Source: a virus (taxonomy: Duplodnaviria > Caudoviricetes). From it: a DNA stretch of 64,000 nt. Position numbers and translations under genes: made by a program. Where the stretch lies: positions 22,951-86,950 of IMG/VR virus record IMGVR_UViG_3300037484_000776, one strand, 5' to 3'. The notes under the pieces were generated by a model, which saw nothing but the letters and a program-made list of their open reading frames with translations, was not told the origin of the DNA and searched no databases. Positions 17,695 through 56,861 of this stretch are shown here, piece after piece. Position 1 is the first letter of the stretch, and each line of letters begins with the position of its first letter.

Positions 17695-19272
17695 ATGAGT
17701 ACAATTTTAACAGACTTCTCCAATGGCGAGACTTCTTACGTTGCGCATTTAAATTTGGTGGTAGATGCGATAGAGGAGTTGCAAGTTCTAACTGAGGAGC
17801 AAGAGAGCTTTGCTACCGTTTTGGAGTCTCTATACGGAGGTCTCTTCGGAACTGGAAATCCTACCAGGATAGGGCTGGACTCTTATACTTTCACTTATCT
17901 TGATGCAGTTTTTACTGTATCTTCGGGATATATTTATCTTCCTGACGAACAGACTGTAGCAACTAGTGAGTCAGACACTGATATAGACCTTACTGGTCTA
18001 GGGTCACACACCTTCTATATACATGTTAACTCAACTACAGGGGTGCCTTACGCAGACTTAGTAAGCGGCACCCCTTATATCGCTACTGTTGTTTTTAACG
18101 GTACTGCGATTACTAGTTATGTTGACCAGGCTATGTCTACACCTGGTATCAATGACTGGATTGGTATCAACACCGGATCTATATGGGCACCTGTCTACAA
18201 CTCTCTTGGTGAGCGTCTTGATGCTGTAGAAGCAGCGGCTGCTAATCTAAAGACCCTTACCTTCTCCTCCGCAACTTATACCGCTACAGAGGCAGAAGCT
18301 CTTCAGCAAAATGGCCTGGTCCTAGCCGGCACTCCTGGCGGGGCCGCTACTCTTGTCGTTCCAGATTTGGTTAGATCCTATACCATCTTTAACAACACTG
18401 GAGAAGTCGTAACGGTAGAGGCTGGGGCATCTGCTGTTGATACTGTAGATATTCCAGTAGGCCATTACGCCCTGGTCTATACCAACGGTGCTGACGACGT
18501 TCTGCCTGTATTCGTGGCAGAGATGACGGCTACCCCCAACGGAAGTGGCACAGGTGGCGGTGGAGGTTCTGGAGGGGCTTCCTCAGACTACTCCATCATG
18601 CTGTTCCAACCCAGCCAGCAGAGCGAAGATGCCTTGATGTATCGGATGGTTTTCCCTCATACTGTGACCTTTCCGGCTAACCTTCCAGGCTCCTATGCTA
18701 CCTCTGTTGTTGGCGCTCTCGCAGATTCCACCTTCACAATTAAGAAGGATGGCTCTTCCATCGGCACCCTTACCTATGCAGCCGGACAATCCGACGGCAC
18801 CTTCACCTTTGCGTCTGAGCAAACGTTCACTGAAGGTACTAATGTATTTTCTTTACACGGTCCGGCAACCGTAGATGACAACCTGTCGGACATAAGTATT
18901 TCTTTTAGAGGTATAAAGCAGACAGCCCTATCCTACGTCTTGCAGGTCTTTATGCCGACCGTGCTGACAAACGAGCAGTTGCTCTTTAGGGCTAAGCCTA
19001 CCAACACTTTCTCTATTGTTCAAGATGCAGTTGGCTCGTATGCTATCGCTGTTACAGCGGCAACTGCTGAAGCTGTGTTTTCTTTGCAGAAAAACGCAGT
19101 CGAGTTTGGTACAATTACCTTTGCTGCTGCCGGCAGCACCGGGACTTTTGCTGTTGCTGCTGAGACTGAGTTTAACCAGGGGTCAGATATTATTTCTATC
19201 GTAGGTCCAGCTACCGCCGACGCTACGTTGGCTGGGGTAAGCATTGCTGTTCTTGGAGCCAGAGAGGCATAA
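17695..19272 (+). CDS. Tail fibre / receptor-binding protein
   Basis: 525 aa, Thr/Ala/Gly-rich, GSGTGGGGGSGG hinge and two tandem ~105-aa C-terminal domains; last large gene of the tail module. Confidence 0.7.
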   Translation: MSTILTDFSNGETSYVAHLNLVVDAIEELQVLTEEQESFATVLESLYGGLFGTGNPTRIGLDSYTFTYLDAVFTVSSGYIYLPDEQTVATSESDTDIDLTGLGSHTFYIHVNSTTGVPYADLVSGTPYIATVVFNGTAITSYVDQAMSTPGINDWIGINTGSIWAPVYNSLGERLDAVEAAAANLKTLTFSSATYTATEAEALQQNGLVLAGTPGGAATLVVPDLVRSYTIFNNTGEVVTVEAGASAVDTVDIPVGHYALVYTNGADDVLPVFVAEMTATPNGSGTGGGGGSGGASSDYSIMLFQPSQQSEDALMYRMVFPHTVTFPANLPGSYATSVVGALADSTFTIKKDGSSIGTLTYAAGQSDGTFTFASEQTFTEGTNVFSLHGPATVDDNLSDISISFRGIKQTALSYVLQVFMPTVLTNEQLLFRAKPTNTFSIVQDAVGSYAIAVTAATAEAVFSLQKNAVEFGTITFAAAGSTGTFAVAAETEFNQGSDIISIVGPATADATLAGVSIAVLGAREA

Positions 19273-54031: not shown

Positions 54032-54430
54032 TTAGTTATCCCAACTTTCCCAATCAGTCCAACTTTCGTAGTCAGAGTAGCAGCCTATCTCAGCTACTTC
54101 TACTGCTGTCTCGTATGAGTTATAAAGCCCTGAGCTGATGCCTCCAATGGCGTTCTCAACAAAGACCGCAAACACTGGCATTAGGTCGTTCCAGCGACTC
54201 TCTCTAGGATCATACCATTCCAGCGCCCCTAGCATGTATGCCTCTCTCCTACCCACCGTCAGGACGGCAACAAACTCATCTGTCCCGTCCTCCATGCTCG
54301 ATATAATCTCTCCACACCCTTCGCTGACCAAATCGCTCAAATACAGGGCGAATGGGTCTCCTTCTCCCTTACCCGGCCTAGCCGCCTGCTCTATATATTC
54401 TCTTGCCTGCCGACTCGTTAGCCTACTCAT
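54032..54430 (-). CDS. Acidic hypothetical protein
   Basis: Start overlaps the upstream stop. Confidence 0.55.
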   Translation of the reverse strand: MSRLTSRQAREYIEQAARPGKGEGDPFALYLSDLVSEGCGEIISSMEDGTDEFVAVLTVGRREAYMLGALEWYDPRESRWNDLMPVFAVFVENAIGGISSGLYNSYETAVEVAEIGCYSDYESWTDWESWDN

Positions 54431-54812
54431 TACTTTCGCCTCTACTATTCTCGCCTGTTAATTTAGCTTTTAATTCCTTTATTTTCCTTGTCAGACCTTC
54501 TCCGTCGTCTGACTGAATATATCCGCAAGTCTCCTCACCTAAAACCTCGCCGTTCTTCCCTAGTAGTTGTACACAAAGAGTTATGTACCACCATTGCCCT
54601 ACAAAGTAAGGGCCGCGGTCGAACCCCTTCTTAACTTCTGGGGTTATTATTATTCTGAAAGTCAACTCATTGGTTAAGTCTCTGATTATCCTAAATCCCA
54701 GGTCACTACACCTGGTATAAGGATAGCCTGCAACAGTAAAAGTATTTTGTGCAAATCTCTTACTGTAATTCCAAGCCCCACCCGAATGCTTACGGTAAGT
54801 TTTTTGCTGCAT
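54423..54812 (-). CDS. Protein starting with an FGE/CLec terminal cassette (GGAW-x23-LGFR) fused to an unrelated domain
   Basis: ATG 54812: MQQKTYRKHSGGAWNYSKRFAQNTFTVAGYPYTRCSDLGFRII... Confidence 0.6.
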   Translation of the reverse strand: MQQKTYRKHSGGAWNYSKRFAQNTFTVAGYPYTRCSDLGFRIIRDLTNELTFRIIITPEVKKGFDRGPYFVGQWWYITLCVQLLGKNGEVLGEETCGYIQSDDGEGLTRKIKELKAKLTGENSRGESNE

Positions 54813-54819
54813 ACTGGTG

Positions 54820-55380
54820 TCAATCCGCACCTTCCAGCCACTCCCAGACCAGCCCCAAACAATCGTACAACCCATACTTATTGGGCTGCTTGGTCTTAAC
54901 TGGCTGAATACTATCTTGATCGTATACAGCAATCTCAGGGTTGCCCTGCACGTGGTCCCCACAATAAAACTGGAACTCTTCCTTTGTTGGCAAACGATAC
55001 TTCTCTCCTGTCTTGCCATTCAACCACTTAATGTATTCCTTAGCGTCCAACCAAGAAACATTAACAACTGGATAATCCCGCCAGTTGTCAGGACGGAGGG
55101 CCATAGGAAACTTAGGAAGCTCTCTCCCAACCTCTAAAGCAAAGATCTCCCATTGACCATAAGTAACAGGGGTCTCTGAGACTGCATAAGCTCTTCCAGG
55201 AATGTCAACCATCTTTAGCCCTGTAAGATCGGGCTCTTTAACGCTGCTTGCCACGAGCCTCACCCCTATTACGTCACTACAACAATCGACAAGAACACTT
55301 ATTACCATGGAGCTCTTAACTGCCGATTCTGGTCCAAAACTCCACGAGCCTCCTGCTATTGGCTTAATTTCACGCTTCAT
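54820..55380 (-). CDS. FGE-sulfatase (C-type lectin fold) core, circularly permuted or split
   Basis: SETPVT..QW, PVVNVSWLDA..Y..WL, YRLPT.EE, PN.YGLYD..GLVWEW, then stop; a GGSW...GVRLV cassette sits at the N-terminus. Confidence 0.82.
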   Translation of the reverse strand: MKREIKPIAGGSWSFGPESAVKSSMVISVLVDCCSDVIGVRLVASSVKEPDLTGLKMVDIPGRAYAVSETPVTYGQWEIFALEVGRELPKFPMALRPDNWRDYPVVNVSWLDAKEYIKWLNGKTGEKYRLPTKEEFQFYCGDHVQGNPEIAVYDQDSIQPVKTKQPNKYGLYDCLGLVWEWLEGAD

Positions 55381-55892: not shown

Positions 55893-56861
55893 TTATTGCA
55901 TGGTAAGGGAGGTGTTGTATGCCTTGTTCATAGCCTTGGAAGACCCAGTAAGGTCAATAACAAAAGCATGAACAGTGCTACTCTCCTTAAATCCTAATCC
56001 TATCTTAAAGCTCATCTTCATTGAGGACATAAATTCCTTGCTTATGTCCGTGGCATAACAAGTCATATTGTTAATCGCCTTTACCTTGTCAAGATTTCCT
56101 TGCCCAGAACTAACGGTCTGCCCATCTTCTGCAACAAGAAGAGCTGAGAACTCCATAACATTAGGGCCCACAGCAATACCTGAGTTGCAAAAGATCAGCA
56201 TGGGCTCTTCTGGCTTGGGGAAACCAATGGCAACAAAAGTGTTATCACTCTTTATGAAGGCAACGTGTTGCTCTGCCTCCCATTTGCCGGTTATCTCTTC
56301 GCTTACCTGCTTCTGCTCAACATTGGTAACTACAGCAGGCTTAGCAACCTGTGGCACAATAGTCGGAGTGCTAGGCACACTAACAGCAGCTGCGCTAGGC
56401 TGCACCGAATTCCCATTAAAGGTAAGAGTGTTACTTGTGGTAGAAATACTCCAAGGCTCTATCTTTGACAAAGCCGACATACCAAGGAGAAATGGCCCGT
56501 CTACTCCAGGGATAGTAGCCGCAACAACGTTTGTGAGAGTAGTATTCCCAATCTTTAACGTCCTAATCTTAAACTCTACTGTTTTTACGGTATCTCCATT
56601 CCCTACGCCGGCCTCATCCTCTCCAATAATATCTCCCGTCTGCACCTTTCCAGTCAAAACAAGGGTCTTAAACACAGAATGCGGAACTAGCACTGCATAA
56701 GCTCCACTATCCACCTGGAAATCTACAGTTATAGTCCCGTTAACAGTCACCGGAACGGTTATCGCCCCACCCTCCACCGAGGTAAGAGGAATTATCTCAG
56801 CACTCACCATTGCTGGGATAATAGCCAAAGCAGTCTTCAAACCTAACTTAAACGTCTTCAT
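55893..56861 (-). CDS. Secreted clan AA (retropepsin-like) aspartyl protease with C-terminal domain
   Basis: Signal peptide (MKTFKLGLKTALAIIPAMVSA), VTVNG, FQVDSGA catalytic motif, LLGMSAL, P/S/T-rich linker and a second domain. Confidence 0.82.
   Translation of the reverse strand: MKTFKLGLKTALAIIPAMVSAEIIPLTSVEGGAITVPVTVNGTITVDFQVDSGAYAVLVPHSVFKTLVLTGKVQTGDIIGEDEAGVGNGDTVKTVEFKIRTLKIGNTTLTNVVAATIPGVDGPFLLGMSALSKIEPWSISTTSNTLTFNGNSVQPSAAAVSVPSTPTIVPQVAKPAVVTNVEQKQVSEEITGKWEAEQHVAFIKSDNTFVAIGFPKPEEPMLIFCNSGIAVGPNVMEFSALLVAEDGQTVSSGQGNLDKVKAINNMTCYATDISKEFMSSMKMSFKIGLGFKESSTVHAFVIDLTGSSKAMNKAYNTSLTMQ

Follow-up and report, generated by a model that had tools for sequence, protein, structure and literature searches.

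A phage FGE-type lectin domain divided between two adjacent reading frames, a candidate two-piece lectin

One FGE-type C-type-lectin domain appears to be divided between two adjacent open reading frames (ORFs), ORF A and ORF B, in the window analysed here, a stretch of 64,000 nucleotides that forms the final 64 kb of the 86,950-bp IMG/VR record IMGVR_UViG_3300037484_000776 of a tailed phage (CheckV completeness 100%). ORF A would represent the body of the domain without its last ~45 residues, and the N-terminus of ORF B would supply the missing strand, followed by an extra domain of ~85 residues. The core and both copies of the strand (cassette A at the N-terminus of ORF A and cassette B at the start of ORF B) are homologous to parts of FGE-type lectins, and the same split recurs in other phage contigs. 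Our preferred explanation, which we put forward tentatively and on the strength of sequence comparisons, is that the two products could form a lectin assembled in trans. Ribosomes ending on ORF A would re-initiate on ORF B, and the two separately translated polypeptides would complement each other's fold to form a binding module without catalytic activity. In this lineage a one-base shift in a fused ancestor probably produced the break, and cassette A is most likely what remains of a strand gene that belonged to an upstream paralog, since lost, and became joined in frame to the core.

An earlier note on this DNA had described ORF A as an FGE-sulfatase core that runs up to GLVWEW and then stops without its C-terminal strand. 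This description agrees with the match to the Pfam profile PF03781 (gathering cut-off 23.3 bits), which covers residues 63-182 of ORF A with 73.5 bits and only profile positions 35-189 of 255. ORF A ends in GLVWEWLEGAD, the TGA being located 5 residues past WEW. As the same note had seen, ORF B opens with the missing RGGSW..GFR strand; its ATG at 54812 lies 7 nucleotides past the ORF A stop in the +1 frame. Taken alone, ORF B matches Pfam profile positions 209-255 (E 0.052), and the whole domain is thus found in neither polypeptide. When the junction is read through by a one-base skip, giving a single 318-residue ORF (P0001), the Pfam match grows to positions 35-255 of 255 with 82.7 bits, and phmmer alignments to SUMF2 (1Y4J), CarF (5AOH) and TvpA (2Y3C) run across the ORF A/ORF B junction. 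The extended Pfam match and these alignments indicate that cassette B is the missing end of the ORF A domain. Cassette B is ~50% identical to the C-terminal strand of P0003, a homolog with core and strand fused in one ORF, which is the same level of identity as in the core. The frame of ORF B is open upstream as far as 55019, in agreement with the earlier observation that it is open through the WEW codons, and the end of ORF B overlaps the ATG of the next gene (54430) by 8 nucleotides. For the C-terminal extension of ORF B no homologs were found by word search, and the Atlas provided only low-score leads; the Atlas model of the extension has a mean predicted local distance difference test score (pLDDT) of 0.49. 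Coordinates of all features are given in Table 1.

Table 1. Positions of ORF A, ORF B and their parts in the window
Feature	Positions	Strand	Description
ORF A, 186 residues	54820..55380	minus	N-terminal cassette copy, short linker and FGE-type lectin core; TGA stop at 54820-54822
FGE-sulfatase / C-type-lectin core	54835..55215	minus	ORF A residues 56-182, ending at WEW; PF03781 match
Junction	54813..54822	minus	TGA and 7-nucleotide spacer CACCAGT before the ATG of ORF B (+1 frame)
ORF B, 129 residues	54423..54812	minus	Cassette B and extension of ~85 residues; protein P0175 of the gene caller
Cassette B	54684..54812	minus	ORF B residues 1-43, MQQKTYRKHSGGAW..RCSDLGFRII; the strand that ORF A lacks
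ORF B C-terminal extension, ~85 residues	54426..54683	minus	Ends in a charged, helix-like stretch
Cassette A	55246..55359	minus	ORF A residues 8-45, IAGGSW..CCSDVIGVRLVAS; degenerate copy of the C-terminal RGGSW..GFR strand

The strand copy that the earlier note placed at the N-terminus of ORF A (motif GGSW..CCSDVIGVRLV, approximately residues 8-45) was recovered by a more specific profile. A hidden Markov model (HMM) built from 31 cassettes, comprising mini-ORFs of phages and C-terminal strands of fused homologs, gives 13.5 bits for cassette A and 31.5 bits for cassette B. None of 2000 shuffles reached the score of cassette A (maximum 6.2 bits), and outside the two cassettes the 55-residue stretches in the long frames of the 64 kb scored no higher than 4.3 bits; the search of ORF A residues 1-50 with Pfam did not detect the copy. 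Cassette A can be aligned with the N-terminal cassette of the homolog P0004 and with mini-ORFs of other phages. At the same time it is degenerate: an Arg is missing ahead of GG, as are the internal R..R and the Pro. In a DNA alignment cassettes A and B are identical at 44 of ~100 bases, tgtagtgac included. Their likeness is limited to the scaffold, as originally proposed; the mismatches are of all kinds and are not restricted to adenines, and nucleotide repeats between the two cassettes amount to short matches at chance level only. Cassette A is bracketed by an exact 11-nucleotide direct repeat (GAGGCTCGTGG, coding strand) at 55251-55261 and 55342-55352. The two copies are 91 nucleotides apart and out of frame, and the repeat is probably meaningless, since chance alone should give ~0.5 such repeats per 2 kb.

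Splitting of the domain at the same junction was observed in several unrelated phage contigs, which bears out one part of the earlier claim of a split pair; the nearest relatives of ORF A, considered below, are fused and do not. In the loci L107, L118, L099, L103 and L095, as in the window, the core stops a few residues past WEW, and the next ORF, at or near this stop, opens with the strand. L107 (IMG/VR contig UViG_3300028388_002695, 1643-3263) is 47% identical to the ORF A homolog P0086, and its core ends in AWQWLRSSA; the core ORF stops 5 residues past WQW, and the TGA overlaps the ATG of the first downstream ORF (ATGA). Downstream of it are four consecutive ORFs of 90-99 residues with two RGGSW..GFRV cassettes each; in each cassette pair, the first is more divergent than the second. 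In L118 (2794-5091) a strand-less core ORF precedes seven mini-ORFs of 44-47 residues, all of the form M....I.GGSW, ~24 variable residues, GFRLIKKLK and stop, with conserved start and stop positions. At scaffold codons the DNA of these mini-ORFs shows synonymous differences, the pattern to be expected if they are translated paralogs. The phage is otherwise AT-rich, yet three of the mini-ORFs have loops of markedly high GC content, and these loops might come from a foreign source. On the high-GC phage contig of L099 (2448-3276) the core is followed by two 44-residue mini-ORFs in two other frames, the first of which starts at a GTGA start/stop overlap. Finally, in L095 the ORF after the core consists of a cassette and ~85 further residues, like ORF B, and L103 has a mini-ORF, a core ORF and a mini-ORF, that is, the same order as in the window. 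The same order in homologous loci, which the earlier note had proposed to look for, is present in L103 (cassette, core, cassette); the closest relatives are single ORFs.

The separate strand genes are recognizable as parts of the FGE domain. Of eight mini-ORFs compared with PF03781, seven match it at positions 206-255, and five score above the gathering cut-off. The cassette profile retrieves 1998 proteins of 20-100 residues at E <=0.001, many of them of ~88-92 or 40-50 residues; some are encoded on contigs longer than 100 kb, and at least one on a contig flagged complete by its source. Raw counts of broken FGE junctions are similar in viral and cellular loci, a few per cent in both. Thus frequency alone proves nothing, and the argument rests on the loci with several independently started strand genes. 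Judged from these loci, the WEW-RGGSW junction is probably a site at which phage FGE-lectin genes have repeatedly been broken in nature. The window follows the pattern in having the core stop 5 residues past WEW and the ATG of the strand ORF 7 nucleotides further on. In contrast to the other split contigs, it has one downstream cassette instead of an array, and the upstream cassette forms a continuous frame with the core. With its one downstream strand gene the window belongs to the split class as a minimal and ambiguous case, the weakest instance of it. No description of split FGE-lectin genes or of strand mini-genes was found in full-text literature searches or in a survey of diversity-generating retroelements (DGRs) (PMC5758913), and this class of phage lectins looks undescribed in the literature.

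Structure prediction and fold comparison are consistent with assignment of ORF A to the FGE-type lectins. In two AlphaFold2 runs the core (residues 55-180) is predicted with pLDDT mostly >90, and Foldseek relates the ORF A model to PvdO 5HHA (E 1e-4), CarF 5AOH, FGE 5NXL and 1Y1H, and TvpA 2Y3C. The TM-scores against these solved members of the family are low, 0.33-0.49, as the model comprises only part of the domain and has a disordered N-terminus. Catalytic FGE of the SUMF1 type has a Cys pair shortly after GGS[WF], Cys336 and Cys341 in the human enzyme. On inspection this early Cys pair was found in neither cassette A nor cassette B: cassette B has one Cys, in RCSD just ahead of GFR, and cassette A has CC at that late position. 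Moreover, in phmmer searches the C-terminal segment aligns to the non-catalytic SUMF2 and not to SUMF1. Given the absence of the early Cys pair from both cassettes, binding is predicted to be more likely than catalysis for the ORF A/ORF B product.

Protein searches revealed a subfamily of small proteins related to ORF A, most of which have a coiled-coil-like N-terminus. Among the 12 closest small homologs, seven have the strand in the same ORF (P0027, P0003, P0004, P0092, P0127, P0131 and P0139), and five end 5-13 residues past WEW (P0040, P0056, P0086, P0094 and P0125). P0086 is encoded on a 70-kb contig, and P0125 stands for three equally long members from contigs of 9-57 kb; being found on contigs of 57-70 kb, P0086 and P0125 are not the result of cuts at contig ends. 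In the tree of cores a 14-member subfamily is supported 100/100, and fused forms are interspersed in it with truncated or split ones, including L107. An alignment with added mini-ORFs was discarded, since these were misaligned on the VNVSW..YRLP part of the core. MAFFT had set the stand-alone cassettes on the PVVNVSW...YRLP segment, with RGGSW on VNVSW and GFRL on YRLP, a misplacement which gives a hint that the FGE fold may contain an internal repeat. Additional cassettes at the N-terminus are known from two homologs. In P0004 the start of the N-terminal cassette (MENKTQRKVIRGGSW) repeats the start of its own C-terminal cassette (NENKTQRKVLRGGSW), and in P0006 three N-terminal cassettes are located ahead of the core. 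It is because of these proteins, and of the separate upstream mini-gene of L103, that we tentatively interpret cassette A as a relic.

Several observations weigh against a functional two-piece lectin in this phage. In the tree of cores the window is sister to the fused P0027 (96/94), and the next clade out consists of the fused P0003 and P0004. With its nearest relatives fused, the split in this phage is probably derived; it could be recent and possibly represents an inactivating mutation. Neither IMG/VR nor the metagenome collection contained a close relative of the phage or of the gene (best match 36% identical), and no close phage relative in which the split is conserved was found there. 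There is no array of cassettes in the window, where the cassette HMM scores only A and B in 64 kb, and no Shine-Dalgarno sequence at normal spacing was found for ORF B. The Met that starts ORF B is present at the same position in the fused P0003, and hence the start codon of ORF B is no evidence of adaptation to the split. Finally, a change of one base restores a single ORF of 318 residues.

The last observation leads to the main rival explanation, an ordinary one-base frameshift in a normal fused FGE-lectin gene, caused by mutation of an accessory gene or by an assembly error. The product would then be truncated or the break artefactual, and the arrangement would have no function of its own. 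We regard this as a credible explanation, if a rather doubtful one. It accounts well for the fused state of P0027, P0003 and P0004 and for the full-length Pfam match of the read-through product; the junction itself is such that a single extra T in GAT-GAC would give GAT-TGA-C, and isolated frameshifts in the FGE domains of the cellular loci L012, L162 and L202 form a background of similar events. However, an accidental break would have hit the very junction that is naturally split in other phages, and cassette B shows no extra decay, its frame being open for ~85 more codons up to a normal gene overlap. All long genes of the record are intact (ORFs of 2117, 1197, 939, 929 and 916 residues), which makes a high rate of indel errors unlikely and argues against an assembly error in particular. 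The earlier note had also considered that the domain might be completed by a +1 frameshift. A programmed shift at GAU-UGA-C would yield a single protein of 318 residues. The similarity to prfB includes the weak UGA-C stop context, the continuation of the domain in the +1 frame and a purine-rich, Shine-Dalgarno-like stretch just upstream (AGGUG, 2 nucleotides upstream of GAU). Unlike prfB, the window has no slippery codon, since tRNA-Asp cannot re-pair on AUU, and neither conservation nor stimulatory RNA structure was seen, the fold around the ORF A stop being unremarkable (z -0.87). In addition, the junctions of the other split loci differ from this one: start and stop overlap in ATGA or GTGA, and several cassettes have starts of their own. 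A programmed shift is therefore clearly unlikely.

Two further explanations give cassette A a more active part. The pair had initially been described as split or circularly permuted; in a circular permutation cassette A would fold into its own core and ORF B would be an independent protein. The N- and C-terminal strands of C-type-lectin folds are neighbours, and the ~12 residues that join cassette A to the first core strand make such a closure in cis topologically possible; cassette A is, moreover, a significant copy of the strand by the cassette HMM. AlphaFold2 did not support this description, as both runs left the N-terminal 50 residues of ORF A outside the core (pLDDT 34-73). In the first run they were helical (pLDDT 52-73), the alignment being contaminated by the coiled-coil N-termini of homologs, and with a cleaned alignment in the second run they had pLDDT 34-61; few sequences cover these residues, so that this test of the N-terminal copy is a weak one. 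The loss of the conserved Arg and Pro positions and a score less than half that of cassette B also speak against closure in cis. P0004 has an N-terminal cassette besides its own C-terminal one, and an N-terminal cassette need not, therefore, replace anything. On balance we consider circular permutation an unlikely solution. A different reading, improbable in our opinion, treats the strand as a docking tag, any carrier of which would plug into a strand-less core, the carriers here being the N-terminus of ORF A and ORF B. Completion of a core by the next ORF A would then produce head-to-tail chains, and completion by ORF B would end the chain with a cap that carries the 85-residue domain. In a broader form of this reading, phages would possess a hard-wired repertoire of binding tips for a single lectin body and so gain diversity without a retroelement. 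A mechanistic precedent for a strand donated by another chain is donor-strand complementation in chaperone-usher pili, which served as a source of analogy only. The likeness consists of a domain without its last beta-strand and a strand copy on an N-terminal extension. The pili have an unrelated fold, so the likeness is one of mechanism, and evidence of polymerisation was not found for the window.

FGE-type lectin folds are the main scaffold used by DGRs for variable binding proteins. No RVT_1 domain was found in the entire 86,950-bp record, and an adenine-tolerant scan of the same 86,950 bp with both cassettes gave no template repeat: the best non-self match had 29-31 non-A mismatches, equal to shuffled controls. 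As the mismatches between the cassettes are not adenine-only either, origin from a DGR within this phage genome was rejected, and the absence of a DGR, claimed in the earlier note, holds for this genome. A reverse transcriptase was likewise not found on four of the split-locus contigs of other phages, three of these four contigs being incomplete. One may still suppose that the cassettes are variable regions written by a DGR located elsewhere, for example, in the host. The strand occupies the position of the DGR variable region of TvpA-type proteins, and T or C is the last base of 23 of the 33 codons examined in cassette B (20 of 27 in the stretch AAT to AGG). Against a remote DGR stand the lack of reverse transcriptase and of an adenine-tolerant template match in the complete genome, as well as the differences between cassettes A and B, which concern more than half of their bases and not only adenines. 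This origin seems very improbable.

Among known proteins TvpA of Treponema denticola (PDB 2Y3C), which belongs to the category 'b' DGR targets (PMC5758913), offers the closest comparison with a DGR system. It is of the same fold family (Foldseek probability 0.99), and the phmmer alignment extends over residues 158-231 of the read-through product, the last ~45 residues being the variable part in both. In TvpA-type proteins these ~45 residues carry the variable binding surface together with the closing strand (PMC5758913). The present system differs from the TvpA-type proteins in that there is no reverse transcriptase or template repeat, the strand is in a separate ORF, and a degenerate second copy is N-terminal. 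A second comparison is provided by the Microcystis phages of the Ma-LMM01/MaMV family, where the tandem genes 45L-47L of MaMV-DL02 encode proteins of 186-246 residues with little beyond one FGE-lectin domain. These proteins are ~33% identical to ORF A, and 47L is also extended C-terminally after the strand; their genes differ from the pair described here in being single intact ORFs that include the strand. A further variant of such a gene was seen in two viral loci from different metagenomes (L087:1741-2130 and L089:1666-2055), which share a Ma-LMM01-like FGE gene where an in-frame TGA replaces the Trp codon of RGGSW. Its flanks (TIRPTLLAEEMWEA...) are conserved relative to 47L of MaMV-DL02, and the RGGSW-GFRV loop is entirely different.

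The phage encodes its own DNA polymerase, primase, helicase and ribonucleotide reductase. Its 86,950-bp record has a single locus with an FGE core, and the neighbourhood of ORF A and ORF B consists of small accessory genes and glycan-modifying enzymes. A tail-fibre-like gene is located far from them at 17695-19272, and a receptor-binding role in the virion is not implied by gene position. About half of the minus-strand gene starts in the window have GAGG or GGAG 5-10 nucleotides upstream, often as TAGAGG. This signal is missing from ORF A as well as from ORF B, each of which starts 5-7 nucleotides after the stop of the preceding ORF. Positions 55893-56861 of the window hold an ORF of 322 residues with a signal-peptide-like N-terminus and a ..VDSGAY.. 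motif, which looks like a retropepsin-type aspartic protease; no PHROG match was found for it.

The meaning of the locus depends on which explanation applies. If the break is only a frameshift, ORF A and ORF B together amount to a disrupted accessory gene of an ordinary kind. If the two-piece lectin exists, a constant lectin body with separately encoded tips would be a second, hard-wired route to binding diversity. It would also be a natural case of protein-fragment complementation that could be copied for the engineering of binders. To this class the window would add a minimal case, in which one tip gene is fused to an extra domain and the relic of another tip is fused to the body. Since it belongs to a lineage with relatives that are still in one piece, the window may show how such splits arise.

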